Source of the DNA: an uncultured Lentisphaeraceae bacterium
Lineage (GTDB): Bacteria > Verrucomicrobiota > Kiritimatiellia > RFP12 > UBA1067
Reading direction: 5' to 3'
Assembly (NCBI GenBank): GCA_964390795.1
Contig: CAYMLQ010000001.1
Span: 2,365 to 66,364 of the forward strand
Length of the DNA stretch: 64,000 nt
The notes under the pieces are model-generated. The model was not told the origin of the DNA. It saw only the letters and a program-made list of their open reading frames with translations, and made no database searches. Every line of letters starts with the position of its first letter. Within the stretch, counting starts at the first letter, position 1. Shown here in pieces: positions 335-56,223 of this stretch. The position numbers and the translations under genes were made by a program.

Positions 335-3300
335 TTACTCCGCTGCAGGCGCGGTGAGAAGCAGGAAATCGTACGACATGTTGAAGGCGTACGACACCGG
401 CAGCCCCTGCGGTCCGGGGTAGGAGGCCTTGTCCGCCCACAGGAAGAAGCCGCGGCCGGCAACGCCGTCGGGCGCGTCGCTGCGCTCGGGCGTCAGCGCG
501 CCTTCGTATGCGATGGTCTTGGAGGTGTGTGTCGTGCCGTAATCGAACCACGCTTTGAACGAGCCCTTGAACACGCCGGTCGCCCGCGTCAGGGCGACGG
601 TCAGTCCCACCGTATTGGTCGAGCCGTAATCCCACACGCGATCCTTGTCGGGGTCAACCGGCACGCCCACCTTCGGAGCCGCGAGGCCGGTCATGACGCC
701 GAGCCTGTTGGTTGCAACCGTCAGACCGAGTCCGGCTGGATTCCAGCAGACCGACGTGTACCGGTTCGTTCCGACGAGAAGATCCGGATCCGGCGCGGCA
801 CCGTCCGTGCCGACCGACAGCGTGCCGCCCGTGTAGTACATGTACAGGTTGCCGACGGTGTCGTACCAGCCGCCGGTCAAATCCAGCTCCCTGAAGAACC
901 CGGAACCATAGCTCTGCGTCGCCTGCGGACTGCGGTTTTCCCAGACCGCCTTGGCGCTCCACCCATCGTCCATATACCGCACAGTGACGGGGCCGCTCAC
1001 CGGCTTCACAAACTCGGCAAGGCCGAAGAAGCTTCCGCCCTTATAAGCGGTCGGAGCGGCGTACAAAACCGTGTACACGTTTTCTTCTCCTGTGAGAATC
1101 AGCACGCCGCTCAGCGAGACGGCGGTCCCGTCCGCCAGTTTGCCGGCGGTCTTCACGTTTCCGGCCTTGTCCACCGTAAACGTGAGGTATCCGCTGCCGT
1201 AGCCCGAAGCGCCCGGCAGTACGGCCGTGTAGTAGCCGGTATAGTTCGTCGCCACGGTGGCCAGCCCCACGTCCTTCCACCCGTTGCGGTACATTTCCAA
1301 AACCCCGTCAACCATCCAGGACACTGCCACACCCAATGTCTGCGGAACGGTGTTGGGCTGCTCATACGATTCCGCCAGTTGCCAAACATCTATCGCAAGC
1401 GGTATCACGGCCTTGCCCGCCTGGGCGTGGGCTTCGAGAACACAAATCCCATTCTCAAGCCGTGTGTACGAAGCCGAAGTGAAAGCGTAGTTCGTCCCGC
1501 CGAAGGTGAGTTTGCCCGTGATCTGACCGAGTGCCGTCGCCGTCATCGTAGCCACACCGCAGGCTTCGCGGGAACCCTGGCTGTCGAGCTTGTAGTAAGT
1601 GCCGTTAAAGGCGCCCTGCGCCCAGGCGGGCAGCGCTCTGACCGTAACGGAGAACGTTTGCGGCACAGCCGTTCCCGCCGCGTTCGAGGCCGTAAAGCTC
1701 ACGCTGTACGTTCCCGCCTTCGTCGGCACGCCTACGATACGGCCCTTGTCCGCATCGAGCTTCAGCCCGGTCGGCACGCCCGTCACCGTAAACCGAGGCA
1801 GACACTCGGAAGCGACCGGCAGCGCCACGCTGAACGCCACGCCCACCGTTGCCTCCTGAGGGCCGGGGCTCCATGCCTGCGGGAGCTCAACTTCTGCCGT
1901 CCTCTTGAAGCTGGCCGTGCAGAGCATGACGCCGTTCTGTGCGCATTCCGCCGCCTCTTCGCCAGTCACCTTGCGCGCGGCCGCCTGACGGCCATCCTCC
2001 CAGTTGAGGAACGTCCACCCCGTGTTCGGAGCGGCGGTCAGGGAAATGGTCTTGCCGGGCAGGCAATACGCGCCGCCCGTAACACGACCGCCCTCTGGCG
2101 GCAGGGGTACGCCCGCGACAAACACGCCCCTATTCGGCACGGTGCCTGCGTCATCGTCACGAAGGGTGACCGCGCAGACACGCGGCTCCGCAACGAAGCC
2201 ACCCACAGGGCTCCCCAGCGTCAGATAAAACAGCTCGTCGCCCTCTGCCAGCTTGTCGCCCGTTATCGGAACCGTCACATACTTGACACCCGACTCCCCT
2301 GCACCCCAGGTCAGATTGGTGCCTGCGACGGGGAAGGAGTAGTCCGCTGATGTTGCGGAGGCTGGCTGCGCGGAGACTTTCACCGAGACCGGGCCGATGC
2401 CGGAAACCGGGATCACCGCGCGGACACCACCGACGCCTGAATTGCCCTCACCGGACGTCGTGTACGTCTCCTGCCCGAAGGACACCTCTCCCCACCCGAA
2501 CGTGAGTTGGTCGACCCAGCCGCAGTCGCTGCCAGATGAGACATTGCCATCCTTTTGATAAACCCATTTCAAGGTGTGCACGCCGACCGGAATTGTGAAT
2601 ACTTTCTGCTGCCAGGTGATGCTCCCCGAAATGGAACCGGGCTGCTCGGCACCGTCGATGTAAAACATCAGCTTATCCCACTTCGCCTCAGATGAAACGC
2701 TCCACCAGAACGTGAGCATACCGGGGCCCGTCACGACGGTCTGGAAGACACTTTGCTGTGAATGCGTGATGCTGCCGCTCTGTGCCGCGTCCACGCCGTC
2801 ATGTGAAGCGCCTGATTGACCGTACCAAGCTACATTTCCACTGGTCATCCACGTCAGCACCTCGCAATCCAGTGCCCCTCCAAGCTGATTGGCCGCTCCC
2901 ACTGTCACCGCGTATGTGGCGCCCCGCTGGTTGTTTGACTCATCGCTTTCGAGGATGGCGTCGGCACTGTCGACGAACGCACGGTAGGTCTTGTTCCCCA
3001 CGCTTGCCGGCGCGGTGAACGTGTGCGTGAACGTGCTGCTCGCGCCAGCAGCCAGCGTCCCGACACTCGCCCAACCATCGCCCGCGCTCCCAACCGGCGC
3101 GTCGGAGGAACGGTCGATCCAGACATTTAACGAGCCGCCGGAACCACTCGCCCCGCCCTGATTTTTTACACTGATCGTGGCGGTCATGCTGTCGCCTGGA
3201 ATAACGGATGTCGACGACAGAGTAATGGACTGGACAACGAAGTCGGGGCGTAATGCCACAGGTGTAAAATAGGCCGTGAGGCTTAGGGCACCCGTCACCG

Positions 3301-6300
3301 TGAAGGCATAGACTGGCTGGGTGGAAACCACCGTCGATCCCGCCTTCCAACTAGCGAAGGTATAGCCGCTGTTAGGCGTCGCCGTCAGCGTACAGGTCGA
3401 ACCGAGAGGTTTTACGCCGGCACCGGCCACCGTGCCGCCGGCAGAGGGGCTGGCAGACGCGGTGATGGTGTAGGATGGCGGTGTCCATACCACCTGATCC
3501 ACCCAGCCACAGTCCGAACCGCCATAATCACTTCCGTCTTTGGCGTACGTCCACCGCACCACGTGCGCGCCGGCCGCGATCGAGAACGTTTTCTGGGCCC
3601 ACTCCTGTTGTCCCGAAATAGCGGCTTGCTCCGCGCCATCGATGGAGCAGCTTAAGGTGTCGTACACTGCCTCGGAGGAGACTTTCCACCAGAAGCTCAG
3701 CGTACCTGGACCGGTCACGGTGGCGAGCAGGGAATTGGTCTGGCTGTTGGAGATGCCGCCGCTCTGCGCCGCGTCCACCCCGTCGTGGCTCGTCGAAGAC
3801 TGCCCGACCCAGTTGGCGTCGCCGCCGGTCAGAAAGGCCAAGTCCGAGTTGTCCAAGGCGATCCCCAGCTGGATCGGTGCCAGTACCGTATAGGTTGCCG
3901 TCCGCTGGTTATTGGCCTCGTTACTTTCAGGGGTTTGACCGGAACTGTCCACAAACACCCGATACGTCTTTGTCCCGGCACCCTGAGGCACCGTGAAGGC
4001 GTGATTGAGCGTGTAAATGGCGCCGGGGGCAAGTTCCCCGACCTGTGCCCAGGCGTCGCTGTCGCTTCCGTCGGGCGGCACACCGGCGCGGTCAAGCCAG
4101 ACATCGACGTATCCGACCGTGCCGGCCACCGAGCCTTGATTTTTTAGCGTGATCAAGGCGGTCATCGTGCCGCCGGCCGTTGCCGTTGTCGGCGAGAAGA
4201 CGACGGACTCAACGGTGAAGTCTGGCAATTGCGCGGACGCCGTGAAAGTCGCGGTCAGCGCCCGGTTCCCGGAGACTGTAAACGTGTAGTTCGGTGACGA
4301 GCTAACCACCGCCCCGCCCTCTGTCCAGTTCGAGAACATCCAGCCGCCGCTCGCCATCGCCGTCACCGTGCAGCTCGAACCGACGACTTTCGTTCCTCCG
4401 CCTGAAGTCGTGCCCCCCGCCGCCGGACTGGCAGCGGTGGTGATGGTGTAGGTGGCGGTATTCGGCGTCCAGCTCACCTGATCCACCCAACCGGCGTCCG
4501 ATCCCGAATTGACGCTGCCGTCTTTACTATAGGTCCACTTCAAAGTATGTGTTCCCGAACCGAGCGTCACGCTCTTCTGTTGCCAGACCACGGTTGTCCC
4601 CGAGAGCGCCTCCTGCGAGACATCGTCCACGTAGAAACTCAACAAGTCAAACCCCTGCTCCGAGGAGACTGCCCACCAGAATGTGAACGTACCGGGACCG
4701 GTCACTGTGATCTGCAGCGTGCTGGACTGCGTATTGGTCACCGCACCGCTTTGCGCCGCATCCACGCCATCATGCGTGGTGCCCGCCTGCCCGTACCAGA
4801 AACCGTTCCCTGACGTGTCCAAGGACAACGAGGCGCTGTCCAACGCGGTCGGCAGCGAGATGGCGGACGATATGAAGACTGCGGTCAGCGTCCGGGCGCC
4901 CGTCACCGTGAACGTGTAGCTCGCAGACGCGCTGACAACCGTGGCTCCCTCCTTCCAGTTCTGGAACGCATAGCCCGCGGCGGGTGTCGCCGTCAGCGTA
5001 CAGGACGCGCCGGAAACCAAGGCGCCCCCGCCCGAGACCGTGCCGCCGTAGGACGGGGTGGCTGTCGCCGTCACCGTGTAGACAGGCGCGAACTGAGCAG
5101 TCAGCGTCCGGTTGCCCACAACCGTAAACGTGTAGCTCGCGGACGCGCTGACGACCGTGGCGCCCTCCTTCCAGTTCTGGAACACATAGCCTGCGGCGGG
5201 TGTCGCCGTCAGCGTGCAGGACGCGCCGGAAGCCACCGTGCCGCCGCCCGAGACCGAGCCGCCCGCCGCCGGGCTGGCCGAACAGGAGACGGTGTAATAG
5301 GTCGGCGTGGGCACCCAGGTCACCTGATCCACCCAGCCACAGTCCGACCCTGATGCGCCACTGTCATCTTTTTGATAAGCCCACTGCACGGTGTGCGAGC
5401 CAGTGGAGATCGTGAATGCTTTCTGCTGCCAGGCGACGTTCCCCGAGAGGGAACCGGACTGCTCGGTGCCGTCGATGAAGAACTTCAGAAAGTCGTACGT
5501 CGCCTCCGAGGACACGCTCCACCAGAAACTGAGCGTGCCGGGGCCGGTCACTGTGGTCTGGAGAGTGCTAGCCTGGGAATTGCCGGCCGGCCCGCTCTGC
5601 GCCGCGTCCACCCCGTCATACTTCGTGGCCATCTGTCCGAACCAGCCCGCGTTTCCGCCGACGGTAAAGGCAAGCGACGTGTTGTCCAGCGCGGTCGCCA
5701 GCGAGACGGCGGTGGGGACAAAACTCGCCGTGAGCGTCCGGTCGCCCGTCACCGTGAACGTGTAGCTGGCTGATGTGCTAACCGATGCTCCGTTCTCTTT
5801 CCAGTTCACAAAGGTGTAGCCGCTGGCGGGCGAGGCCGTCACCGTGCAGGACGCGCCGGACGTTTTGGCCCCGCCTCCAGAGGTCGTGCCGCCCGCTGTC
5901 GGGCTGGAGTCCGTCCTGATGGTGTAGGTGGCTGTGCTCGGCGTCCAGACCACCTGATCCACCCAGCCGCAGTCCGAGCCAGATACGGCACTCCCATCCT
6001 TTTGATAAGCCCACTGCAGGGTGTGCGAGCCGGACGGGATCGTAAACGATTTCTGCTGCCAAGCGACACTCCCCGAGAGGGAGCCGGACTGCTCTGTTCC
6101 GTCGACGTAAAACTTCAGGAAATCGCACGCCGCCTCCGAAGACACGCTCCACCAGAAGCTGAGTGTGCCCGGGCCGGCCACCGTGGTCTGCAAGGCGCTC
6201 TGCTGTAAATGCGTGATGCTGCCGCTGCGCGCAGCATCCACGCCGTCATGCGTGGCTCCTACCTGCCCATACCAGTTCCCAGATGTGGTCCAGGACAGCG

Positions 6301-8176
6301 CGGTGTTGTCCAACGCGGTCGCCAGCGGTACGGAGGACGCCTCGAAGTTCGCGGTCAGCGTCCGGTTACCGGTTACCGTGAAGACGTAGCTGGGCGAGGT
6401 GCTCAGAACCGTGGCCCCCTCCGTCCAGCTCTGAAACGTATAACCGGTGTTGGGGGTGGCGGTAACTGTGCAGGTGGAGCCGGACGCCTTTGTCCCGCCG
6501 CCCGTCACCGTTCCGCCCGCCGTCGGGCTGGCGGTCACCGTGACCGTGAAGGAACCGGGGGCCGACTCCAGAATCAAGTCCTTCCCCCAGAGGTTTCCGA
6601 CCGTCGAAGACGTGCTGCGGTAGAGCGTGACCGTTTGCTCCGCGCTCTGCGCGCCGCCGCTGGAGGCGCGCAGCTTGAACGTTTCGGAGGATGCGGCACC
6701 GCTGCGGGCGAACGCGTACATGCCCTTGCTGTTGGACGTCAGCGTCTGGATCAGCGTCCCCGCCGAACTTCTCACTTCCACCGTCGCATTCGCGACGGGA
6801 ACCCCGCTCGTATTCAGCACCCGCCCGCTCAGCAGTTTCCTCTCGGAATCAGGGAAGACATTGAAGACTGCGCCCTTCAGATATGAAAATGTGAATTCGT
6901 TCTGCGGTGTGGTTCCAAGATCAGGAAGGGTATACCAAATATCGTCTGACCCCGCCCACCCCATATTCAGATGGGCATACCTTGTCCCGTTGTTATACCC
7001 GTAGCCGTCAGCGAGAATAGAATGCCCACCGCTTGACCCTCCAACGGAAAGTTGGACAGGGTATTGACAATCAAGACTGACCAAGACGGCTTTCTGAATT
7101 GCCTCTTCTGACAGGCCGGATGAATAGTTAAAATAGGAAACAGCGCTCGCGTAGCCGAAAACCGATTTCAACTGGTCTGAAACAAGGGCCGTGTCTGTAC
7201 TGCTCCCGCTGGACGAATAACTCATTTTCACCGACACGCCCGCGTCATAGCAGAGCTTCCCGATGGCCTGTCGCTGGGCGGTAGAAAGCGACACATTTGC
7301 AGGAACGTTCGGCATGCTGCTCCACGCGTACGCCCCGCCTTTCATGGTGAGAGATTGCGCGACATTGTTGACCTTACAGGGAAACGTCTGGGGCGTGACA
7401 GACGCGGTTGGATATCCGTGAAACTTCATCAGCTGCGCCATGGCCGTCGCGACGCATCCGCATACGTAATTGTTCGCGCTATCGTCCGGGCCGACCGGCG
7501 TGTAATAGTTATAAACGGCATTTCCGCCGACCGTGCTTTGGTTCCACTTGGTCTGTACGAGCGGCGCGACGCGTACGTCGCTGACGGAAGGCACAGAGCT
7601 GAACAACTGATAATCCCGATCCCCGGCCAGAAGAGCCGCCCATTGCGCTTCAGGCGACTGCTCCTCCGGTTGCGTAACTGCGGCCAGTGCGCCTTGCTGC
7701 GGCTGCGCCGCAGCGGCGGCCAACGCCTGCTTGCTGACCTTCATGTCTTGCATCAACATCGCGTACAACGGGTTCGCTGGATCAGGGTCGAGATCCTCCC
7801 CAGAAGAGAACGCGATGACCGGCTGGAGTCCCGTGTCTGCCGACATGACAACGAACCCGCCTTCCTCCAGATAGACCACGTGGAAAAGCGGGTCGTCCAC
7901 CTTATCCGTATAGGTGAGCGCGCCAAACACCGTCTGGCCGAGTGCGGCACCCAGCGGCGTGGCGTCGCGGGCGACCCAGTTCTGAACCGCCGTTGCGGCC
8001 TGTTCCGTTGAGACCGGCGCGGCCTGAGCGAGACCAGGTACAAACGCGGTTGCGAAGAACGCGATGACGGCCTTCACAACAAAGGGCCGGCTGGCGAAAT
8101 ATGCCAAGCGGCCCCGAGCCTTTTCGAAAAGAACTCGAATAGGATTAAACGACCAATACCGCTGTTTCATAGCCAT
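335..8176 (-). CDS. Giant secreted multidomain protein (paralog 1). It carries an N-terminal C10 streptopain-like cysteine peptidase with propeptide, a CarboxypepD_reg-like domain, 5 unnamed WW-VSSE modules alternating with Listeria-Bacteroides (Flg_new) repeats, 2 CARDB domains, Calx-beta, He_PIG Ig and the conserved C-terminal family domain.
   Basis: 2632-aa ORF in the track, whose M is a TTG at 8233. I prefer the ATG at 8174-8176 (MAMKQRYW...), which gives a long signal region ending ...FVPGLAQA. C10 motifs are NNYVCGCVATAMAQLMKFHGYP (catalytic Cys codon at ~7454-7456) and GGHSILADGYG (His codon ~7022-7024). CARDB-type E-NE-NN endings are ESNEANNQ and ESDESNNQ. The C-terminal ~430 aa (nt ~338-1633) are shared with the six other giants. 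Confidence 0.85.
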   Translation of the reverse strand: MAMKQRYWSFNPIRVLFEKARGRLAYFASRPFVVKAVIAFFATAFVPGLAQAAPVSTEQAATAVQNWVARDATPLGAALGQTVFGALTYTDKVDDPLFHVVYLEEGGFVVMSADTGLQPVIAFSSGEDLDPDPANPLYAMLMQDMKVSKQALAAAAAQPQQGALAAVTQPEEQSPEAQWAALLAGDRDYQLFSSVPSVSDVRVAPLVQTKWNQSTVGGNAVYNYYTPVGPDDSANNYVCGCVATAMAQLMKFHGYPTASVTPQTFPCKVNNVAQSLTMKGGAYAWSSMPNVPANVSLSTAQRQAIGKLCYDAGVSVKMSYSSSGSSTDTALVSDQLKSVFGYASAVSYFNYSSGLSEEAIQKAVLVSLDCQYPVQLSVGGSSGGHSILADGYGYNNGTRYAHLNMGWAGSDDIWYTLPDLGTTPQNEFTFSYLKGAVFNVFPDSERKLLSGRVLNTSGVPVANATVEVRSSAGTLIQTLTSNSKGMYAFARSGAASSETFKLRASSGGAQSAEQTVTLYRSTSSTVGNLWGKDLILESAPGSFTVTVTASPTAGGTVTGGGTKASGSTCTVTATPNTGYTFQSWTEGATVLSTSPSYVFTVTGNRTLTANFEASSVPLATALDNTALSWTTSGNWYGQVGATHDGVDAARSGSITHLQQSALQTTVAGPGTLSFWWSVSSEAACDFLKFYVDGTEQSGSLSGSVAWQQKSFTIPSGSHTLQWAYQKDGSAVSGSDCGWVDQVVWTPSTATYTIRTDSSPTAGGTTSGGGAKTSGASCTVTASPASGYTFVNWKENGASVSTSASYTFTVTGDRTLTASFVPTAVSLATALDNTSLAFTVGGNAGWFGQMATKYDGVDAAQSGPAGNSQASTLQTTVTGPGTLSFWWSVSSEATYDFLKFFIDGTEQSGSLSGNVAWQQKAFTISTGSHTVQWAYQKDDSGASGSDCGWVDQVTWVPTPTYYTVSCSASPAAGGSVSGGGTVASGASCTLTATPAAGYVFQNWKEGATVVSASASYTFTVVGNRTLTAQFAPVYTVTATATPSYGGTVSGGGALVSGASCTLTATPAAGYAFQNWKEGATVVSASASYTFTVTGARTLTAVFISSAISLPTALDSASLSLDTSGNGFWYGQAGTTHDGVDAAQSGAVTNTQSSTLQITVTGPGTFTFWWAVSSEQGFDLLSFYVDDVSQEALSGTTVVWQQKSVTLGSGTHTLKWTYSKDGSVNSGSDAGWVDQVSWTPNTATYTITTAASPAAGGTTSGGGTKVVGSSCTVTAMASGGWMFSNWTEGGAVVSSSPNYTFTVSGNRALTATFTASAQLPDFTVESVVFSPTTATAGGTMTALITLKNQGSVAGTVGYVDVWLDRAGVPPDGSDSDAWAQVGELAPGAIYTLNHAFTVPQGAGTKTYRVFVDSSGQTPESNEANNQRTATYTVLAPIQLGIALDNSDLAFLTGGDANWVGQSSTSHDGVDAAQSGGISNSQTNSLLATVTGPGTLSFWWKVSSEAVYDTLSCSIDGAEQAAISGQQEWAQKTFSIAAGAHVVRWTYAKDGSDYGGSDCGWVDQVVWTPPSYTITASASPSAGGTVAGAGVKPLGSTCTLTATPNSGYTFASWKAGSTVVSTQPVYAFTVTGALSLTAYFTPVALRPDFVVQSITLSSTSVIPGDSMTATISVKNQGGASGSGGSLNVWIDRSSDAPVGSAGDGWASVGTLAAGASSTFTHTFTAPASVGNKTYRAFVDSADAILESDESNNQRGATYAVTVGAANQLGGALDCEVLTWMTSGNVAWYGQSGASHDGVDAAQSGSITHSQQSVFQTVVTGPGMLTFWWSVSSEAKWDKLMFYIDGAEQPGSISGSITWQQKVFTIPVGVHTLKWVYQKDGNVSSGSDCGWVDQLTFGWGEVSFGQETYTTSGEGNSGVGGVRAVIPVSGIGPVSVKVSAQPASATSADYSFPVAGTNLTWGAGESGVKYVTVPITGDKLAEGDELFYLTLGSPVGGFVAEPRVCAVTLRDDDAGTVPNRGVFVAGVPLPPEGGRVTGGAYCLPGKTISLTAAPNTGWTFLNWEDGRQAAARKVTGEEAAECAQNGVMLCTASFKRTAEVELPQAWSPGPQEATVGVAFSVALPVASECLPRFTVTGVPTGLKLDADKGRIVGVPTKAGTYSVSFTASNAAGTAVPQTFSVTVRALPAWAQGAFNGTYYKLDSQGSREACGVATMTATALGQITGKLTFGGTNYAFTSASYTRLENGICVLEAHAQAGKAVIPLAIDVWQLAESYEQPNTVPQTLGVAVSWMVDGVLEMYRNGWKDVGLATVATNYTGYYTAVLPGASGYGSGYLTFTVDKAGNVKTAGKLADGTAVSLSGVLILTGEENVYTVLYAAPTAYKGGSFFGLAEFVKPVSGPVTVRYMDDGWSAKAVWENRSPQATQSYGSGFFRELDLTGGWYDTVGNLYMYYTGGTLSVGTDGAAPDPDLLVGTNRYTSVCWNPAGLGLTVATNRLGVMTGLAAPKVGVPVDPDKDRVWDYGSTNTVGLTVALTRATGVFKGSFKAWFDYGTTHTSKTIAYEGALTPERSDAPDGVAGRGFFLWADKASYPGPQGLPVSYAFNMSYDFLLLTAPAAE

Positions 8177-8337
8177 CGCCAGCACCTCTCTTAGTTTCGC
8201 TACTGAAAACACCGACGTCACTGGATGACACAAATGATTAATGTTTGTTTAAAGTAGCATGGCTCCCATATAGGCGCAAGCCAAAATGTTGGGAAAACCC
8301 ATCCCGGGCGAGCGGTGCTGGCCGCGCCTCTCATTTT

Positions 8338-11300
8338 TCAGATGAGGATAAAATCGTACGACAAGCTGAAGCCGTAGGTCACGGGCTTGCCCTGCGCGTT
8401 GAGGTACTGCGACTTGTCCGCCCACAGGAAGAAGCCGCGTCCCGCGACGCCGTTAGCGCCGTCCTCGCCTTCAGGCGTCAGCACGCCTTCGTATGCGATG
8501 CTCTTGGGCGTGTGCATCGAGCCATCGTCGAACCATGCCTTGAAGGCCCCTTTGAAAATGCCGGTCGCACGCGTCAGGGCCATCGTAAGCCCCACGGTGT
8601 TGATGGCGCCGTACTCCCATTTCCCATCTTTCTCGGGGTCAACAGGCACACCCGCCTTCGGGGCGGTGAGGCCCGTCATGACGCCCAGCTTGTTGGTCGC
8701 CACCGCCAGAGCGACGCCGTCCGGCCGCCACCAGGCCGACGCCGTGCGGTTCGTGCCGGCGGTCAACTCCGGCGCGGGCACCCCGTCGGCCGTACCGACC
8801 GAAAGCGCCCTGTCCGCATAGTAGCGGTACAGGTTGCCGACCGTGTCGTACCAGCCGCCGGCCAGCCCGAGGCTCCGGCTGAAGCCGCCCGCGGCGTAGT
8901 CGCCCGTCGCCAGCGGGTTGCGGCTCTCCCACAGGAAGGTCGTCCCTGTCAGCGCGCACACAAAGACAGGCGAGCTACTCGAAGCTTTGTGGAACTGGAG
9001 TGCGCCGAAGAGGCAGCCGCCCTTATACGCAGCGGGAGCGGTGTGGAGCACCGCAAACACGCGCCGATCCCCGTCGAGGAGCAGCGAACCGCTCTGCGAC
9101 ACCACCGTGCCGTCCGCCAGTTTGCCCGCCGCCTTCACGCCGCCAATCTTGTCCACCGTGAAAGCAAGATACCCGCTTCCATACTCCGCGCCGCCCGGCA
9201 GGGACGCCGTGTAGTAGCCCGCGTAGTTCGTCGCCGACGCGGCCATATCCGCATCCTTCCAGACGTTGCGATACAGCACGACAGGCGCCTGACCCTCCGC
9301 GGCCCCATCCAGCCATCCCTCCGCCAGACCGAGACCGGCGGGGGCCTCCGGCTCGTTTTCAGGATGCGTCACGAGCACCGTCAGCGGCACCTTCGCCTGG
9401 CCGCCCACCGCCACGGCGGTAAACCTCAACGGCAGTCCGTTGGTGTACGACGCGGCGCTGAACGTGTAGTTCGTGCCAGCCGCGCTGAGCCTGCCGGCGA
9501 CCCTGCCCTGCGCCGTCACCGTCATTTGTGCAGTCCCCGGCTCGGCACCGCCGCGCAGTGCGCAGGCGCCGGCGAAAGTCCCCTGCGCCCACAGGGGCAG
9601 AGGATCAACGGTGATGCGGATGGTCAGCACGCACGGCGTCTTGTTCACGTTTCGAGCGGTGACCAAAACCGCCCGATTGGTGACCGCCGCCGACGGCGCG
9701 CCCATAATCGCCCGTGCGGCCGCGTTGAAGGTCAGCCCTGCCGGAAGACCGGTCACCGTCACCACCGGCAGACTCTCGGACTGGATGTCCAGCGGCAGGC
9801 TGAAAAACACGCCGGCCATCGCCCGCTGCGCGCCCGGATCGGCGACCACCGGCTGCGAAACCTGGGCCGTCAGGCCGAACCAGGCCCGCACCGTCACGTT
9901 GGCGTCCGGCATCACGAGCGTGCGCACGGCCGCCTGCGTGCCATCCTCCCAGCGCAGGAAGGTGTTGTTCGCCGCGGGTTTCGCCGTCAGGGTGACTCTG
10001 GCGCCCGGCGCATAGAGCCCCGCGCCCGTCACCGTCCCGCCGCCCGCCGGCATCTCGGCCGTGAGGCGCGCCTTGACGGTGAGCGTCTGCCTCACCGGCA
10101 GAGCGGCCTTAAAGTCCGCAGTGCCCGGCTGGCTCCCCGTGATCACCGCCGCACCCGTCCCCACGACATGGACCAGCCCGTCTTCGATCTGCGCGACCTT
10201 CTCGTTGGAACTCACGTACACGACCTGCAAACCCGACGATGCGGTTGCCCCGGGATTGAAGTTCGTGGCCTCCAGCGCAAGAACAGGCAGGGCTTTGAAG
10301 GCGATGGTCTGGCTGGCGGCGACGTTGTTGACCCGCACCGTCCAGTTGGTTTCGGTTGTTCCCGCCCGCCGGTCCAGCGCTACGGCCTTGATCTGCACGT
10401 CCCGGAACACCACACCCTGCACGGTCGCCGCGTCCGTCTTCAACGTGAACGCGCTGGTGACCGCGTTCGGCGCGCCAGTCCGGGTCTCCCCCTTCAGAAC
10501 GCCGTCCACATACCAGGTGATGTTCGACATCCCGCGCTCCACGTCGGCATCGGCCGTGTCGTTCGCCGTCGCGCTGAAAGCGACCGATGCGCCTTCGCTG
10601 ACCGCCGCAGGGTTCATAACCGGCACGCGCTTGGTGATCACTGGAAGCACGTTCTGCGCCCTGTAGACGGCCGTCAGGGTCACCTTGAGCTTAGGCATGA
10701 TCAGCACCGTAACGGACTGCGTCGGAACAAAGTCGGGGCCCAGCTCCGCATCTTTCGGCGTCATCGTCCACCGGTCGAACAGATACCCGGCAGGCGGCGG
10801 ATCTGCGGACACCTCCACCGGGGTTTCAAACGTATACTCTCCACCGCCAGCGCCGTTGACGACCGTGAGCAGGTTCGTCCCGGATGGCGCATACGGCATG
10901 ATCCCGAAAACTGCCGCATGCTGGCTCCACGTGTAATTGTGAAAATAGACCGAATCCATGTTATACCAGGCGTCGCCATAGCCGGAGATCCCGAAATTGA
11001 GGTGGATCTCGTTACTGTTGCGATACCCGTCGCACACGAGAGCGTGCCCGCCCAGTGCCGACACCATGGTGTAGTAGACCGGATGCGACTCGTCCAGATC
11101 GTTCTGGATTTTCGCAAACCAGGCCGGCGTGGTTGAATCGGCTCTCATCTGGTACTCTTCGCAGATGTAACCGAACACCTCCCGAAACGCGCGGGCGGTC
11201 GCAAGCTGGCTACACACCGACGTTGAGGTTGCCTCGTAATTCGCCTCCATCGCCACGCCGCAATGGTACAGCAGCCGCCCGACAGCCTGTTTCTGGGCAG

Positions 11301-12213
11301 GCGTACACGCGGTCGTGAGGGTAGATGGCATATCGGCCCACTCATAGGCTTCGAGCCCGCCGACGTCGCTGATGCGATGCGTTCCGGTACAGCTCCCGTA
11401 GTCGTCCGTATAACTGAAGTCGAGGAGCGGCGCGGCCGGCTCCTCGAAATAGCGGACAATCTGCGCCATCGCGACGGGACCGCAGCCTGCGAGGGCATGG
11501 CCCTCCGAGCCGCCTGATGCCGCAGGCGCAGAAGAATTGTAGGGCGCCTTCTGATCCCATGCCGTCGTCAGCAACGGCACGCTCGCGCTCGCCATCTCCA
11601 CGGCCGGCGCCAGCGCGATTGCTTCCACGGCGACCGGAACTGCGGTCTGCGCCAACGCCTGCCAGGCCAGGCGGTAACGGGGTTCCGGCGCCCGCCGGGC
11701 ACTCCGCAGCCCAGCCAGCGCCGCCACCTCGCCTCCGAGTTCGGCCTCGATCACCGCCCGGAAGCCGGCCGGCAGAGCCCCATACGACCCGCTTGCCGAA
11801 TGCAGCTTAATCGGGGGCAGCTCGTCATCGGCGCGCACGACCACAAAGCCGGACGGCTTAAGCTCCACCACGAACCCCAGGGGGCCTTCCGCGCCGTTAA
11901 TCGGACGGCAGGCGCCTGCGGTGAACGCCGCCGGGGCGGCGAGCCGCCGCGCGGCCTTGGCGATGGAGGACGGCGCATAGTTCCGGTCGATGTAGGTCGA
12001 GGCCGTCAGGCGGGCGTGACCCTCCCCGACCGGGGCCGCGCTGAGCACGCCAATCTGAAGCAGGATACTCGCATAAATGAGAACCGCACGCGCGAAATGA
12101 GAACCGCCGAGGGAGACGCGGGCCTGCGCACCCTGCGTGCGCTCCTCCGTGTTGATTCGCGAAAAGCACACCTTGCTGACTGAACCTGTCCGTTCTATCG
12201 CGGTCTGCCTCAT
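8338..12213 (-). CDS. Giant secreted multidomain protein (paralog 2): N-terminal C10 cysteine peptidase, He_PIG Ig domains and the conserved C-terminal family domain
   Basis: 1291-aa ORF with ATG start at 12211-12213. C10 motifs are GCGPVAMAQIVRYFEEP and GGHALVCDGYR. The C-terminus (...GRGFFLWADKSQYLNAQGKPVTYGFSLSYDFILI) aligns along ~430 aa with the other giants. Confidence 0.85.
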   Translation of the reverse strand: MRQTAIERTGSVSKVCFSRINTEERTQGAQARVSLGGSHFARAVLIYASILLQIGVLSAAPVGEGHARLTASTYIDRNYAPSSIAKAARRLAAPAAFTAGACRPINGAEGPLGFVVELKPSGFVVVRADDELPPIKLHSASGSYGALPAGFRAVIEAELGGEVAALAGLRSARRAPEPRYRLAWQALAQTAVPVAVEAIALAPAVEMASASVPLLTTAWDQKAPYNSSAPAASGGSEGHALAGCGPVAMAQIVRYFEEPAAPLLDFSYTDDYGSCTGTHRISDVGGLEAYEWADMPSTLTTACTPAQKQAVGRLLYHCGVAMEANYEATSTSVCSQLATARAFREVFGYICEEYQMRADSTTPAWFAKIQNDLDESHPVYYTMVSALGGHALVCDGYRNSNEIHLNFGISGYGDAWYNMDSVYFHNYTWSQHAAVFGIMPYAPSGTNLLTVVNGAGGGEYTFETPVEVSADPPPAGYLFDRWTMTPKDAELGPDFVPTQSVTVLIMPKLKVTLTAVYRAQNVLPVITKRVPVMNPAAVSEGASVAFSATANDTADADVERGMSNITWYVDGVLKGETRTGAPNAVTSAFTLKTDAATVQGVVFRDVQIKAVALDRRAGTTETNWTVRVNNVAASQTIAFKALPVLALEATNFNPGATASSGLQVVYVSSNEKVAQIEDGLVHVVGTGAAVITGSQPGTADFKAALPVRQTLTVKARLTAEMPAGGGTVTGAGLYAPGARVTLTAKPAANNTFLRWEDGTQAAVRTLVMPDANVTVRAWFGLTAQVSQPVVADPGAQRAMAGVFFSLPLDIQSESLPVVTVTGLPAGLTFNAAARAIMGAPSAAVTNRAVLVTARNVNKTPCVLTIRITVDPLPLWAQGTFAGACALRGGAEPGTAQMTVTAQGRVAGRLSAAGTNYTFSAASYTNGLPLRFTAVAVGGQAKVPLTVLVTHPENEPEAPAGLGLAEGWLDGAAEGQAPVVLYRNVWKDADMAASATNYAGYYTASLPGGAEYGSGYLAFTVDKIGGVKAAGKLADGTVVSQSGSLLLDGDRRVFAVLHTAPAAYKGGCLFGALQFHKASSSSPVFVCALTGTTFLWESRNPLATGDYAAGGFSRSLGLAGGWYDTVGNLYRYYADRALSVGTADGVPAPELTAGTNRTASAWWRPDGVALAVATNKLGVMTGLTAPKAGVPVDPEKDGKWEYGAINTVGLTMALTRATGIFKGAFKAWFDDGSMHTPKSIAYEGVLTPEGEDGANGVAGRGFFLWADKSQYLNAQGKPVTYGFSLSYDFILI

Positions 12214-12333
12214 TGGGTCTCCTTAAAAGCCTCGCAGCGCTCACACAGACGCCTCGCACCGCCGCTCGCATCACCCGCCCCCTTATGGCTGGCATGTACG
12301 ACTATGGTCTTATGCACAACGCGTGCCAAAAGG

Positions 12334-12369
12334 CAAAAAGGGGCGGCTCCGCCACCGGAACCGCCCCCC
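12334..12369 (-). terminator. Putative intrinsic terminator after giant paralog 3
   Basis: GGGGCGG...CCGCCCC GC-rich stem which, read on the minus strand, is followed by CUUUUUGCC. This suggests paralog 2 has its own promoter. Coordinates are ±2. Confidence 0.5.
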
Positions 12370-12391
12370 GTTAGCTAAAACCCAATTTCCG

Positions 12392-15300
12392 TTATTGGAC
12401 AGGATCGGTCAACAGTAAGAAATCATAGGATCCATTGAATGAATAAGGCACCGGCTTGTTCTGCGGGTTCAGGTACGTGGCCGCATCCGCCCACAGGAAG
12501 AAGCCGCGGCCCGCAACGCCGTCGGACGCGTCCCCGCGCACGGGCGTCAGGATGCCCTCGTACGCGACGGACTTGGAGGTATGCGTCGAGCCATAATCGA
12601 ACCAAGCCTTGAACGCGCCTTTAAACACGCCCGTCGCGCGTGTCAGTGAGACCGTCAGACCCGCGGCGTTGGTCACGCTTTCGTAGTCGTACCCATCAGC
12701 CACCCGCACCGGCACGCCTGCCTTCGGGACGGTAAGGCCCGTCATGACGCCCAGCTTATTGGTCGCCACTGTCAGCGCGAGCCCGTCGGGGCGCCACCAG
12801 GCCGAGTCGTACCGGTTCGTGCCGACGGTCAGTTCCGGTACGGGCGCGCCGCTGTCCGTGCCTGCGGCAAGCTCCCGGCCCGCATAGTAGCGGTACAGGT
12901 TGCCGACAGTGTCGTACCAGCCGCCGGACAGCCCGAGGCTCCGGCTGAATCCGCCCGCGGCGTAGTTGCCCGTCGCCAGCGGACTGCGGCTCTCCCACTG
13001 TAGGGACGACCCGTACAGCGGGCGTAAGTACACGGGCGAACTGGCCGAAAACTTGTAGAACTGGACCACACCGAAGAGGCAGCCGCCCTTGTACGCCACA
13101 GGCGCCGTGTGGAGTACCGCATACACGCGGCGGCCCTCGTCTATAATCAGCGCTCCGCTCAGCGAGACGGCCGTGCCGTCCGCCAGCTTGCCCGCCGTCT
13201 TCACCCCACCTGCCTTGTCCACCGTCAAGGCCAGGTAGCCGCTGCCGTACTCCGCTCCGCCCGGCAGGGACGCCGTATAGTAGCCCGTGTAGGTCGTCGC
13301 CAACGCGGCCATGTCCGGATCCTTCCAGACGTTGCGGTACAGCACGGCCACCGGCGCGCCGCCGGGGTCGCCGGGCAGCCGTGCGGCCGCCATGCCCAAG
13401 CCCAAGGCGACCGAGCCCGCCGCCTGCGCCACGGTAAAGGACAGCGGCATGGCCGCCCTGCCAGCAGCCGCCTTCGCCGCGAAAGCGAACCCGGGCCCGT
13501 TGGTGTACGACGCCGCACTGAAGGCGTAGTTCGTGCCCGCCGCGCTCAGCTTCCCGCTGATCTTGCCTTGCGGCGTCACCGTCAACTCCGCCGTCCCGGG
13601 CGCGCCCAAGCCCGGCAGCGCACATGTGCCGCCGAACGTCCCCACCGCCCATGCGGGCAACGGGGAGACCGTCACGGCGAAGGTCAGAGAGGCCGGAGCG
13701 CTGTTCGCGTTCTTCGCCGTGACCGTCACCGCCTTGTTCGTCACCGCTGCCGACGGCACGCCCGTCACCGACCTCGACGCGGCGTCGTACCTGAGGCCGG
13801 CGGGCAGACCGGTCACCGTCACCGCAGGCAGGCTCGCGGACTGGATGCCGAGCGGCAGGCTGAACAGGACGCCCACCGTCGCCTGCTGCGCGCCGGGGTT
13901 GGCGATCACGGGCGGCTGGATGCCGGCTGTCAGTCCGAACCAGGCCTGCACGGTCACGTTGGCGTTGGGTATCACAAGGCTTCGGGAGGCCGTCTGCGAG
14001 CCGTCCTCCCAGCGCAGGAACGTGTTGCCCGCAGCGGGCTTCGCCGACAAAGCGACCTTCGCGCCCGGCGCGTAAAGCCCCGCGCCCGTCACCGTCCCGC
14101 CGCCGGAGACGACGGCAGAAAGGCGCGCCTTGACCGTCAGCGTCTGTCTCACCGGCACAGCCGCCTTGTAGTCCGTGTTGCCCGGCTGGCTCGCCGTAAT
14201 CACGGACGTGCCCGCGCCGACGATGCGGATCAGACCGTTCACGATCTGCGCCACGGACAGGTTCGAACTTTCGTAAGTCACCGGCAGCCCCGACGAGGCC
14301 GTCGCTCCCGGATTGTAATTCGTGCCGCCCAGCGTCGTAAGCGGCAGCGCCTTGAAGGCAATGGTCTGCGCGGCTATCAGGTTGTTCACCCGCAGCGTCC
14401 AGACCGCTTCAGTGGCCCCCCCCTGTTTGTCCAGCGCGACGGCCCTGACCGCCACATCGCGGGACGCCGCACCCTGCACCGTGTTCGCATCGGTCTTGTA
14501 GGCGAACGCGCTGGTGATGGCGTTGGGCGCGCCGGTCTTCGTCTCCTGCTTGAGCACGCCATCAACGAACCAGGTGATGTTGGACATCCCTCGATCAGCC
14601 ACTTTGGGATCGGCACGGTCGTCCGCCGTTATGCTGAAGGAGACCGTGGCGCCTTCGCTGACAGCCGCCGGCTCAGACGCCGGAGACCGCTTCGTCACGA
14701 CGGGAACCACATTTGATCCGTCGTACTGAATCGTCCAACTGACTGTTTGCGACAGCACATTCGTTCGCCAGTCCGCATTGCGCACCAGTGTCGAGTGATC
14801 CGTAACCACAGCCGAGACCGTATTTGCCCTTAATGACAGACTGAGCGAAGCGGTTTCAAGCGAGGACACATTTTGCGCGACTGTCTGACCATTGACAGTC
14901 CAGGTCACGGCGTACTTGGCCAAAGGCAGAACAAAAGAAAGCTCCAAGCGTTTGCCGCGGTCATACGTTCCGGGCGGCGTGCTGGAGTCCACGGGACGAC
15001 AGAAATCGTAAATACGCTTGATCAGAATTTCAGTATTGACCGAGTCCCAGGCGCCATCCAACGCCCGCATTTTTGAATTTTGGCTGGGGCGGTAGATCCC
15101 GTACTGGCAGTAATACGCACCCTCAAACGTGGAAATGCCATTGGACCCCAGCCAGTACCACCACTTGGCGTGATAGGACTGCATGGTGCCGGAAGAATAC
15201 ATGCTGACATTCGGCTCGCTGGGTTCGGATTCCGTATAGCGTTCACTGTCTGCGTAATCGTATTCGTCCGCCAACAGACCGAAAGAGTGGCCGAATTCAT

Positions 15301-15955
15301 GAAGCGCAAGATCGACGGCAGAAAAATTGTTTCCTGAGACGGTTGCAATCCCGAGGCCGGAATATCCGGCACCGCCGTACTTGGTGCTATTGGCACACGC
15401 AAGAATCATGTCGGCTTCGGGAGCGAGCGCCGCGGCAGCCTGCGCCAAGGCCACGTCAATGCCCAGCAAACGTTCGATTCCGCTACAGAAAAACTCCATA
15501 TTCAATGCGGTATTCCGGCTGATTCCCAGAGCAGGATCATTGTCGACCCCTGATTCGGGCGACACCACATTGACCAGGTGCACATTGAAATAGGACTTGT
15601 ATGTGCTGAGGGGCGGATCCTCAAAGAACTGATTGATCACATTCACTGCATGCTGGCGATACGTGCCGAGTTCACTTGCCGTATAGCCGTCACCCAACAC
15701 AACGAGATCAATCCGGTTGGACGGCGGCCCGTTGTTGACGAGCGTTTCGACCGTCCAACCGGCAGACGCGGACTTCCTTACGGGCTGACCAAAATGGACA
15801 CCCAAAATGTTCATCCGATTGGACGCGTTGATGGCAATCTTGCCACCGCCTAAGCGTCCATTCTCAACAGCGTCATAATAGACCACTGGGTCAGCGGCAG
15901 ACGCCTGTAGGCATCCCAAGAGGAGAACAACACATCCAAACGCCATCCGTTTCAT
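12392..15955 (-). CDS. Giant secreted multidomain protein (paralog 3): N-terminal M64 (IgA-peptidase-like) zinc metallopeptidase, Ig-like domains, He_PIG and the conserved C-terminal family domain
   Basis: 1187-aa ORF with signal peptide MKRMAFGCVVLLLGCLQASAA. M64 signatures are IDLVVLGDGYTASE and HEFGHSFGLLADEY (HEFGH codons ~15287-15301). The C-terminus reads ...GRGFFLWADAATYLNPQNKPVPYSFNGSYDFLLLTDPVQ. Confidence 0.85.
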   Translation of the reverse strand: MKRMAFGCVVLLLGCLQASAADPVVYYDAVENGRLGGGKIAINASNRMNILGVHFGQPVRKSASAGWTVETLVNNGPPSNRIDLVVLGDGYTASELGTYRQHAVNVINQFFEDPPLSTYKSYFNVHLVNVVSPESGVDNDPALGISRNTALNMEFFCSGIERLLGIDVALAQAAAALAPEADMILACANSTKYGGAGYSGLGIATVSGNNFSAVDLALHEFGHSFGLLADEYDYADSERYTESEPSEPNVSMYSSGTMQSYHAKWWYWLGSNGISTFEGAYYCQYGIYRPSQNSKMRALDGAWDSVNTEILIKRIYDFCRPVDSSTPPGTYDRGKRLELSFVLPLAKYAVTWTVNGQTVAQNVSSLETASLSLSLRANTVSAVVTDHSTLVRNADWRTNVLSQTVSWTIQYDGSNVVPVVTKRSPASEPAAVSEGATVSFSITADDRADPKVADRGMSNITWFVDGVLKQETKTGAPNAITSAFAYKTDANTVQGAASRDVAVRAVALDKQGGATEAVWTLRVNNLIAAQTIAFKALPLTTLGGTNYNPGATASSGLPVTYESSNLSVAQIVNGLIRIVGAGTSVITASQPGNTDYKAAVPVRQTLTVKARLSAVVSGGGTVTGAGLYAPGAKVALSAKPAAGNTFLRWEDGSQTASRSLVIPNANVTVQAWFGLTAGIQPPVIANPGAQQATVGVLFSLPLGIQSASLPAVTVTGLPAGLRYDAASRSVTGVPSAAVTNKAVTVTAKNANSAPASLTFAVTVSPLPAWAVGTFGGTCALPGLGAPGTAELTVTPQGKISGKLSAAGTNYAFSAASYTNGPGFAFAAKAAAGRAAMPLSFTVAQAAGSVALGLGMAAARLPGDPGGAPVAVLYRNVWKDPDMAALATTYTGYYTASLPGGAEYGSGYLALTVDKAGGVKTAGKLADGTAVSLSGALIIDEGRRVYAVLHTAPVAYKGGCLFGVVQFYKFSASSPVYLRPLYGSSLQWESRSPLATGNYAAGGFSRSLGLSGGWYDTVGNLYRYYAGRELAAGTDSGAPVPELTVGTNRYDSAWWRPDGLALTVATNKLGVMTGLTVPKAGVPVRVADGYDYESVTNAAGLTVSLTRATGVFKGAFKAWFDYGSTHTSKSVAYEGILTPVRGDASDGVAGRGFFLWADAATYLNPQNKPVPYSFNGSYDFLLLTDPVQ

Positions 15956-22265: not shown

Positions 22266-22426
22266 ACTACACCCTTTCACTATGCTTACAGCACAATCTT
22301 CGCCGAAACATAAATGTTATTAAACAACGATTACATTGCTGAGTCAAGCACGAAAATGCACAAAAATGCTAATCGGTTCTGACAGGGGGGACGCGATTGA
22401 AGTGCGTATCGTGTGCGAAGCGACTT

Positions 22427-26646: not shown

Positions 26647-26687
26647 AGTGTTTACTTCTTTCCGAATAACTTGGCTGACTGATGGCT

Positions 26688-27521
26688 TCAAGGCGTAGCC
26701 TGCGGCTCGGCCGCTTCAGGCTCCTCCGGCTCGACATTTTCCTGTATCCATTGGGCCGCCGCCTCGGGCGTCGTGTATTCAGTCTGCGTCACGAATACGT
26801 AATGCTCACGGGCCACCTCTCCCGCGACTTTATTTTCGCCTTGGATGATGCCCACGAGCGCAGCAACCGCCAGGTCCTCTTTCAGCTGATCAACCGACAT
26901 CACGAGCGACTCCATGTCCTCCTGTTGACGCATCGAGCCCATGGCTGCAACCAGCAATTCAGCCTTCGCGTCATCCTCCTGGATCTCCTCGAAAGCCATT
27001 TTCCATTGGGTAAACGCATCCGACGCCACACTGTCGTCTTTATCGGCCAACATCTGCGTGAGTTCAGGCAGAGCCTTTAACCCAATCCATCCGAGAACGA
27101 TGAGCACGCGCGAACGGACGTCCGCGTCTTCCGAATCGAGCAACCTGCGGGCGATCTTCAGTGCGCCTTTTTCGTCGCCTGAATCCAGCAGGGCGCGCAT
27201 GGTGTCTGCATCGCGTTCATCTGGCGTACGCGCACGTGCAGGCGCGGCATTGGTCGCCGCACCGGTGGCCCGCCCGACTCCCCCTGTGGCCGTCCGGCTG
27301 GCGGGGCGCTCCAAACGCGCCCCGCTCTTTTCCGCGGCGATGCGGGCAACCGCCTGCGTTGACCCGAGAGCCGGCTCCCGAAGACCCGTCGTCCCGGCTA
27401 CCGGACCACGCCGTTGAAAGAACGCAAAACAGAGCACCCCCGCGCACACCGCAACAACGCTCAGCACTATCCAGACCGGCTTCACCAACCTAGTTGCCCC
27501 GCGTGCGCTCACTCGCCCCAA
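26688..27521 (-). CDS. Membrane-anchored HEAT/PBS-lyase-like repeat protein embedded between giant paralogs 6 and 5
   Basis: 277-aa ORF with a TTG start at 27519-27521, which overlaps the stop of paralog 6 (27509) by 13 bp. It has a single N-terminal TM helix (VWIVLSVVAVCAGVLCFAFF) followed by HEAT-like repeats (DADVRSRVLIVLGWIGLKALPELTQMLADKDDSVASDAF). Its stop at 26688 lies 41 bp before the paralog 5 ATG. The start codon is uncertain. Confidence 0.45.
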   Translation of the reverse strand: MGRVSARGATRLVKPVWIVLSVVAVCAGVLCFAFFQRRGPVAGTTGLREPALGSTQAVARIAAEKSGARLERPASRTATGGVGRATGAATNAAPARARTPDERDADTMRALLDSGDEKGALKIARRLLDSEDADVRSRVLIVLGWIGLKALPELTQMLADKDDSVASDAFTQWKMAFEEIQEDDAKAELLVAAMGSMRQQEDMESLVMSVDQLKEDLAVAALVGIIQGENKVAGEVAREHYVFVTQTEYTTPEAAAQWIQENVEPEEPEAAEPQATP

Positions 27522-32929: not shown

Positions 32930-32965
32930 CTCGCCCTCCAACGTTTCACCTTTTCGAACCAAACA

Positions 32966-56125: not shown

Positions 56126-56133
56126 GCGCTCTA

Positions 56134-56194: not shown

Positions 56195-56223
56195 TTGAAC
56201 AGTTAATACGCGCAATTATAACA

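Follow-up and report, generated by a model that had tools for sequence, protein, structure and literature searches.

What do three adjacent genes with protease-like N-termini encode in an uncultured bacterium, and at which substrates are their products aimed? The genes, p1, p2 and p3, lie on the minus strand of a 64,000-nucleotide stretch of contig CAYMLQ010000001.1, the whole of which is called the window here. The original prediction, read from the letters of this stretch, saw in them immunoglobulin-protease-like catalytic heads, two of the C10 (streptopain) type and one of the M64 type, carried on a shared C-terminal scaffold as a host-facing and possibly gut mucosal arsenal of recently diversified paralogs. 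We found heads and scaffold to be real. Judging from the comparisons described below, p1 to p3 are probably exported, stalk-mounted extracellular proteases with a common C-terminal module, which would serve general proteolysis and would not be specific for immunoglobulins. The three are members of a seven-gene array in a bacterium of the Planctomycetes-Verrucomicrobia-Chlamydiae (PVC) group (Kiritimatiellia or Lentisphaeria), and a common plan is evident in their predicted products: a Sec-type signal, a variable head, a stalk of immunoglobulin (Ig)-like repeats (Flg_new_2, He_PIG, CARDB, Calx-beta) and a C-terminal domain of ~420 residues.

Catalytic heads of p1, p2 and p3

The three genes and the domains of their N-terminal parts are located as follows.

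335..8233, minus strand: p1, an open reading frame of 2632 codons (open reading frame list and translation, Pfam)
8176, minus strand: likely start of p1, an ATG (MAMKQRYW)
7742..8023, minus strand: I69 (Spi, streptopain-propeptide-like) prodomain of p1, residues 71-164 (Pfam PF13734, E 8.7e-10, 39.4 bits)
6932..7522, minus strand: Peptidase_C10 catalytic domain of p1, residues 238-434 (Pfam E 5.5e-41, 141.4 bits)
8338..12213, minus strand: p2, 1291 residues
10963..11559, minus strand: Peptidase_C10 catalytic domain of p2, residues 219-417 (Pfam E 1.3e-44, 153.2 bits)
12392..15955, minus strand: p3, 1187 residues
15896-15955, minus strand: signal peptide of p3 (ASA followed by AD; LLGC is an alternative possible lipobox)
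14966..15742, minus strand: Peptidase_M64 domain of p3, residues ~72-330 (Pfam E 4.9e-44, 151.1 bits)

The family calls, C10 twice and M64 once, stood up to inspection, with 141, 153 and 151 bits against a Pfam gathering score of 26 bits for both Peptidase_C10 (PF01640) and Peptidase_M64 (PF09471). The open reading frames, motifs and quoted codons were all three located exactly where they had first been placed. From its N-terminus p1 consists of a signal peptide (a signal-like hydrophobic segment, FVVKAVIAFFATAFV, then AQA followed by A), an I69-like prodomain, the C10 protease, a CarboxypepD_reg domain, a long repeat stalk and the shared C-terminal domain. The order in p2 is a signal-like N-terminus, a weak I69-like prodomain, the C10 protease, an Ig-like stalk (Flg_new_2, He_PIG) and the shared domain. 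In p3 a signal peptide is followed by the M64 metallopeptidase, a small beta domain, an Ig-like stalk and again the shared domain.

The catalytic cysteine of p1, Cys260 (codon 7454-7456), lies within GCVATAMAQ and its histidine, His404 (codon 7022-7024), within GGHSILADGY; the equivalents in p2 are Cys244 (codon 11482-11484) within GCGPVAMAQ and His390 (codon 11044-11046) within GGHALVCDGY. When PDB sequences were searched with phmmer, p1 matched streptopain (6ukd/1pvj) at E 1.5e-21 with GCVATA and GGH aligned, and p2 matched interpain A (3bba) at E 3e-28 and streptopain at E 2e-26, again with the catalytic residues aligned. The GC(V/G)..AMAQ of p1 and p2 aligns to GCVATATAQ of streptopain and their GGH to its GGHAF, the segments that bear the catalytic dyad, which we take to be Cys192 and His340 in zymogen numbering. 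The same Cys and His were invariant in 13 of the 13 other C10 heads borne on this scaffold in other genomes. On these alignments p1 and p2 almost certainly belong to MEROPS family C10 (the streptopain family) with an intact catalytic dyad.

With streptopain (SpeB) and interpain A the two heads have in common the fold family, the aligned catalytic Cys and His and predicted secretion, and p1, less clearly p2, also a prodomain of the I69/propeptide type. Such a prodomain at the N-terminus implies activation as a zymogen. Identity to the characterised enzymes is ~26-30%, and their specificity is for that reason not transferable. The architecture differs as well, since p1 and p2 run to 1291-2632 residues with long Ig-like stalks and the 420-residue C-terminal domain, whereas SpeB is a free zymogen of ~40 kDa. 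Interpain and other C10 enzymes of Bacteroidota use the C-terminal domain (CTD) of the type IX secretion system (T9SS). The two C10 heads are also distant from one another, residues 54-461 of p1 and 42-440 of p2 being 26% identical (blastp). Heads of the p2 type were found in loci L003, L002 and L032 at 52-63% identity, and those of the p1 type in L017 and L001 at only 39-41%; over its full length p2 has counterparts in L003 and L002 at 58-61%.

The p3 head can be assigned with high confidence, from its sequence, as an M64 zinc metallopeptidase with an intact active site. Its zinc motif, HEFGHSFGLLAD, at 15266-15301 provides His219, Glu220, His223 and Asp230, with HEFGH at 15287-15301 and the third zinc ligand, Asp230, at 15266-15268; the segment IDLVVLGDGYTASE lies at 15671-15712. 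In the M64 catalytic motif, HEXXHXXXGXXD, two His and the Asp bind zinc and the Glu is the general base, which in BF3526 are H311, H315 and D322 as ligands and E312 as base (PMC12402451). The roles in p3 were assigned by homology to H311/E312/H315/D322: HEFGHSFGLLADEY of p3 aligns to HEFGHSFGGLADEY of BF3526, and all four zinc-site equivalents are kept. HExxH...D was invariant in ~120 M64 relatives. For all three heads the catalytic residues thus proved intact on closer alignment to solved structures, as had been proposed, and are conserved in homologues.

The solved structures closest to the p3 head are BF3526 of Bacteroides fragilis (4DF9/9QDI) and BACOVA_00663 (3P1V), both of M64 cluster CL-I (phmmer against PDB sequences, E 8e-21 to 4df9/9qdi and 5e-19 to 3p1v). 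These share with p3 a near-identical zinc motif, HEFGHSFG(G/L)LADEY, and are exported, and p3 differs from both in being mounted on a stalk and scaffold. In BF3526 the cleft is capped by a 125-residue beta-sandwich at the N-terminus, whereas p3 has only ~50 residues between signal peptide and catalytic domain; its Pfam matches were to M64, Flg_new_2 and He_PIG only, with neither the N-terminal domain of ThomasA (see below) nor that of BF3526. As no N-terminal domain caps it, the p3 cleft would probably admit polypeptides. A Cys-rich second zinc site like that of BF3526 is probably missing too, only two Cys being seen by eye in the C-terminal part. The nearest M64 relatives of p3 are 44-53% identical proteins of 420-700 residues from metagenome-assembled genomes (MAGs) labelled Planctomycetota, Phycisphaerae or Sedimentisphaerales.

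A few features count against three intact, active heads. The I69-like prodomain match of p2 scored 18.9 bits, under the Pfam cut-off of 25 for PF13734. The NWGW tryptophans of streptopain and interpain are missing in p2, which at window 10981-10998 (residues 406-411) reads NFGISG in place of their NWGWGG or NWGWNG; the second Trp is absent from p2 and part of its clade, in which the position varies between I, F, Y, L and W. p1 keeps a Trp, in an NMGW adjoining the catalytic His, and its clade likewise has NMGW. In p3 the Gly of HEXXHXXXGXXD is replaced by Leu, at a position that is occupied by D/N/S/R/K/G/E/L among the ~120 relatives.

The shared C-terminal domain

The stalks and C-terminal domains of the three proteins occupy the following positions.

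1619..6598, minus strand: stalk of p1, with 7 Flg_new_2, 2 CARDB, Calx-beta and He_PIG (Pfam) and five copies of a ~135-residue module
338..1618, minus strand: p1 copy of the shared C-terminal domain, residues 2206-2632 (blastp among paralogs; match positions 1-412 of the domain hidden Markov model)
8341-9591, minus strand: p2 copy of the shared C-terminal domain
13646-14725, minus strand: Ig-like stalk of p3
12395-13645, minus strand: p3 copy of the shared C-terminal domain

The paralogs are 48-67% identical over ~420-780 residues of their shared C-terminus (blastp), which bears out a common scaffold with proteases as N-terminal heads. The window contains exactly seven copies of the domain, borne by adjacent genes of the minus strand (blastp and domain hidden Markov model). 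The description of the locus as three adjacent paralogs was therefore correct as to the shared C-terminus but not as to the extent of the family, which has seven adjacent members, four of them without a protease.

AlphaFold2, supplied with a 58-sequence alignment, gave a confident all-beta model of the domain (pLDDT 93.7, pTM 0.90) with a strand pattern of three lobes. A membrane beta-barrel of the autotransporter kind was considered and is unlikely, given strands of mostly 5-8 residues, three compact lobes and no profile match. The model weakly resembled TbpB in Foldseek (E 2.9e-3, TM 0.21). In the literature no relevant description of a Lentisphaerae or Victivallis surface-protein domain was found.

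The domain is widespread. When 1.84 billion cluster representatives were searched with its profile, the matches numbered at least 578 proteins at E<=1e-30 and 1123 with the threshold set to E<=1e-10, and in nearly all of these matches it stands at the extreme C-terminus of proteins of 500-3600 residues. Among 185,579 species-representative genomes, 78 loci carry the scaffold, with several copies per MAG. Family members have no LPXTG, no PEP-CTERM and no hydrophobic 19-residue segment in their last 60 residues, and no Pfam or NCBIfam match to the known C-terminal sorting signals (T9SS CTD, autotransporter beta-domain).

In 85 proteins the sequence ahead of the domain was then compared with Pfam. 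The passengers were mostly adhesin-like repeats (Flg_new_2, Flg_new, He_PIG, BspA-type LRR_5, LRR_8, Calx-beta); a minority carried C10 (5), FGE-sulfatase (6), thioredoxin-like (5), RHS repeat (3), C39-like (1), M12 (1) or alpha/beta-hydrolase (2) domains, and M64 was found in 0 of the 85. Among the best 150 cluster representatives, C10 was present in 8 and M64 in 1 (P0143). As these counts demonstrate, protease heads are a recurrent minority cargo of a general-purpose module.

Single scaffold proteins may bear more than one such head: P0150 (1692 aa) and P0127 (1360 aa) each combine C10 and FGE-sulfatase-like domains. P0143 is encoded at a solitary locus outside any array (L079; GCA_016278185.1, JADHEF010000420.1, 180-15882), with a phage-type integrase and mobile-element-like genes (RadC, DUF2997, DUF1257, N6 methyltransferase) as neighbours. 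The ~135-residue module of the p1 stalk, recognized by its WWxVSSE...GWVDQV motifs, occurs five times in p1 (residues ~637-1915), where it alternates with Flg_new_2 and CARDB, and once around residue 372 of p4, another member of the array; it is without a Pfam match.

What might such a domain do? The T9SS CTD, the autotransporter beta-domain and the Slam-dependent barrel of TbpB offer a parallel, in that one C-terminal module likewise serves many unrelated N-terminal passengers, proteases among them; these sorting and anchoring modules of diderm bacteria and the present domain also occur in several copies per genome. They differ in build, the present domain having ~420 residues in three short-stranded beta lobes and being neither the 80-residue T9SS domain nor a membrane barrel of 12-16 strands. 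Judged only by its position and its sharing, the domain may be a common attachment or export module, to which we give slightly less than an even chance. More tentatively, it is possible that it represents an undescribed sorting or anchoring module of the PVC group, a counterpart of the T9SS CTD or the autotransporter beta-domain, with passengers installed by recombination between head and stalk. Several negative results tell against a function in sorting or anchoring. Neither Pfam nor NCBIfam has a model that matches the domain, PDB sequences searched with its profile gave nothing meaningful (the best was CopC at E 0.17), Foldseek gave no match in the PDB at E<=1e-3 for either the whole domain or module 3, and beside family members in general no conserved gene was found that might act as their dedicated exporter.

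The heads themselves are ordinary, two more C10 and one more M64 with intact active sites, and the scaffold is the interesting part: an uncharacterised, confidently folded all-beta domain found in hundreds of cluster representatives, with no entry in Pfam, NCBIfam or the PDB, which in poorly studied PVC bacteria bears proteases, FGE-like and thioredoxin-like domains and many adhesin repeats. The design is a variation on the known plan of protease head, stalk and C-terminal anchor, with an uncharacterised, widespread module and signs of an exchange of heads. Were the domain shown to act as a tag for secretion or anchoring, it would define the way in which these bacteria assemble their surface and would offer a handle for display.

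Substrates, habitat and competing explanations

If p1 to p3 serve general extracellular proteolysis, they would be exported through Sec by way of their signal-like N-terminal segments, to be either displayed at the outer surface or released from it, and the C-terminal domain would be the module that they share for attachment or export. We take the source bacterium of p3 to be diderm, from general knowledge of the PVC group, and a SurA-like periplasmic chaperone gene inside the array was counted towards export. The Ig-like repeats would act as a spacer that holds the head off the cell, as do the 'periscope' domains of the Thomasclavelia ramosa enzyme (PMC12415215). The heads of p1 and p2 would be papain-like C10 zymogens, active once the prodomain is removed, and that of p3 an M64 zinc metallopeptidase (His-Glu-x-x-His plus Asp) with a cleft open to polypeptides. 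Such enzymes could degrade extracellular proteins, glycoproteins and peptides for nutrition, or trim surface proteins, and new heads would arise through recombination at the head/stalk junction.

The original prediction had instead read the three heads as a host-directed arsenal against immunoglobulins, mucins and matrix proteins at the gut mucosa. Both families do include host-directed enzymes (streptopain, interpain A, the IgA protease of T. ramosa), and the PDB matches fall there. ThomasA, that IgA protease (9QDH, 9EKK; M64 cluster CL-V), belongs to the same peptidase family as p3 and is alike in general design, with a protease head, beta-domain 'periscope' spacers and a C-terminal anchor (PMC12415215, PMC12402451). 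Its N-terminal domain, however, is a DUF6273, it depends on beta1 and beta2 domains of its own, and it is held by a sortase (SPXTG) anchor of the Gram-positive type, none of which is present in p3. ThomasA is the sole M64 member shown to cleave IgA (PMC12402451); it recognises Fab via its own domains, the minimal active fragment being residues 323-878 (PMC12402451; PMC12415215). Against the IgA protease chains (9EKK, 9QDH, 9I4Z) p3 gave E values of 0.08-0.5 over 60 residues only, 0.08 being reached with ThomasA, as opposed to 8e-21 with BF3526. BF3526 does not cleave intact IgA1, IgA2 or IgG1 and trims only the N-termini of pre-digested proteins (PMC12402451), a restriction put down to the N-terminal beta-sandwich (residues 21-145) by which its cleft is capped (PMC12402451). 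In the published M64 network the Planctomycetota clusters are separate from the gut-Bacillota cluster of ThomasA (PMC12402451), and the best matches of p3 are Planctomycetota and Phycisphaerae MAG proteins, of M64 clusters other than that of ThomasA. The labels 'IgA peptidase M64' and 'streptopain family' are thus no prediction of function, the solved enzyme closest to p3 being one that spares intact IgA.

The genomic surroundings point away from a gut as well. Elsewhere the window carries chromosomal genes, among them recA, guaA, alaS and one for a squalene-hopene cyclase. The best named relatives of RecA are from Kiritimatiellia MAGs (92-93%), then Verrucomicrobiota (88%) and Lentisphaerae (82%), and the scaffold homologues are labelled Lentisphaeraceae, Victivallales or 'Verrucomicrobia', in a clade whose MAG labels conflict (Kiritimatiellia also being used). 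Because the best named RecA matches are Kiritimatiellia and the labels disagree, we claim only a PVC-group assignment of the Kiritimatiellia/Lentisphaeria type. The closest genome found was MAG nzgw607, in which recA and alaS lie side by side (contig JAHFSX010000036.1, locus L036, 13786-16732) and each encodes a protein 93% identical to its counterpart at 55082-58649 of the window. The prefix 'nzgw' is used for MAGs from aquifer groundwater (PMC8862662, PMC9562985). Identity falls to 61% for the p2 counterpart in this MAG (L003), from 93% for RecA and AlaS; either the surface proteins diverge much faster than core genes, or they were replaced. The closest scaffold homologues (45-68%) come from nzgw607, Lake Loclat, other 'GW' (groundwater) MAGs and co-assembly MAGs of unstated source.

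Scaffold homologues are also present in MAGs from rumen (RUG) and termite gut, if only distant ones at 26-35% identity, which speaks for a host-directed role and against an environmental one. The closest relatives, in lake and groundwater, the C10 identity of ~26-30% across which specificity does not carry, and the four of seven array members that are not proteases, in a family whose passengers are mostly something else, all argue the other way. The M64 and C10 comparisons, together with the environmental affinity, leave the immunoglobulin and gut mucosal reading without positive support, and we regard it as very unlikely.

Three other explanations were weighed against general extracellular proteolysis. 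The heads might be sheddases or maturases that cut the cell's own surface proteins, including other scaffold members, and so release or activate passengers. Surface proteins of the producing cell are processed in this way by streptopain and by NalP, the autotransporter protease of Neisseria. In the present locus the proteases share one array with four non-protease proteins of the same stalk and C-terminal module, and P0150 and P0127 join C10 and FGE-sulfatase-like heads on single proteins. Co-location is nevertheless all that speaks for it, no cleavage motif is known, and the scaffold proteins P0143 (M64) and P0134 (C10) stand alone in their contigs, away from other family members; this explanation is unlikely, if less so than a host-directed arsenal. 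Delivery of antibacterial or anti-eukaryote effectors, contact-dependent or akin to polymorphic toxins and with the C-terminal domain as the delivery or receptor-binding part, would agree with the RHS/YD repeats (PF05593) of some family members and with variable heads exchanged by recombination. The polarity, however, is opposite to that of known polymorphic toxins, with a variable N-terminus and an unchanging C-terminus; the intergenic gaps of 100-180 nt fit no immunity-like small open reading frames, and the passengers are mostly repeats and not toxins. We consider it a shade less probable than the host-directed reading. Least probable of all is that the heads are pseudo-proteases, catalytically dead binding modules on giant adhesins that serve adhesion only. 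That most family members bear only adhesin-like repeats (LRR_5, Flg_new, He_PIG, Calx-beta) and that the p2 clade has lost a Trp of NWGW would fit such a role, but the heads have all their catalytic residues, which are conserved throughout the homologues examined, and the zymogen-type prodomain is kept. The ratio of nonsynonymous to synonymous divergence (dN/dS) of ~0.34 for p2/p3 on the shared part, which indicates purifying selection there, argues against it as well.

Paralog age, the chimeric p3 and the array

The recent diversification claimed for the paralogs is contradicted by their divergence. On the shared part p2 and p3 differ by a synonymous divergence (dS) of 0.68 and the other pairs by 0.9-1.2, no gene-conversion tracts were found between paralogs, the longest identical nucleotide run being 29 nt, and the two C10 heads are far apart, as described above. 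By these measures the paralogs are old. A recent duplication or gene conversion linking p2 and p3 was rejected on the same dS and run length.

The homology of p3 to p2 begins at residue 405 of p3 and continues to its end at 67-68% identity. The GC content at third codon positions (GC3) of p3 is 0.63 in codons 1-404 and 0.85 in codons 405-1187 (Fisher p 9e-18), compared with 0.88-0.96 in the housekeeping genes recA, guaA and alaS.

14726..15955, minus strand: compositionally distinct head of p3, codons 1-~410 (GC3)

The GC3 step (window ~14726-14760, codon ~405) thus coincides with the start of p2 homology, which suggests recombination at the head/stalk junction. The scaffold part of p3 is 70% identical to a protein of locus L001 that bears a C10 head of the p1 type. 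On the sequence, p3 is a chimera, most simply explained by recombination that joined an M64 head of lower-GC origin to a resident stalk and scaffold, and it offers a clean natural example of head swapping on this kind of scaffold.

Only one further protein that joins M64 to the scaffold was found, P0143. Its identity to p3 is 58% over p3 residues 6-525, past the breakpoint and into the first stalk domain, and only 47% in the C-terminal part. P0143 shows a milder head-to-tail GC3 gradient in a genome of 56% GC, and GC3 is also low in the C10 domain of p1 (0.50-0.77 at 6854-7633). In view of both, GC3 composition alone is no proof of recent transfer.

The remaining genes of the array are listed here.

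16056-22280, minus strand: p4, with an FGE-sulfatase-like head
22591-26691, minus strand: p5, thioredoxin-like and Calx-beta
26688-27521, minus strand: HEAT-repeat gene, within the array
27509-32962, minus strand: p6, Calx-beta only
32966-34159, minus strand: SurA-like peptidyl-prolyl isomerase gene, within the array
34571-40096, minus strand: p7, Calx-beta only

All seven scaffold proteins begin with a hydrophobic segment followed by an AxA-type site, and p5 and p6 form a divergent subgroup, ~28% identical to the other five. The SurA-like and HEAT-repeat genes are syntenic in related MAGs (L022, 9452-10645; L018, 3160-4425). Contig CAYLUN010000063.1 shows synteny with the whole array, the proteins being 44-62% identical. 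The order shared with that contig comprises a p9-like gene, a scaffold-family protein at the p7 position, the SurA-like gene, p6, the HEAT-repeat gene, p5, a protein with an FGE head and a p2-like gene. The FGE-head protein stands at the p4 position and resembles p4 in its stalk and C-terminus only. An M64 gene is absent from CAYLUN010000063.1, and the p2-like gene there is not followed by a p1-like one. The SurA-like, HEAT-repeat and p9 genes were considered as general partners of the family and rejected, since they recur only in the syntenic copy of this locus.

A consensus scan of the gaps between the genes gave two sites between p3 and p2, which are no more than pattern matches and do not show function.

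12338..12369, minus strand: terminator-like hairpin of 14 pairs, 10 of them G-C, with a T-rich tail, directly after the p3 stop codon
12301-12329, minus strand: promoter-like site ahead of p2

The p4/p3 and p2/p1 gaps contain no comparable hairpin or promoter-like site. With a hairpin and then a promoter-like site between them, p3 and p2 may be separate transcription units.

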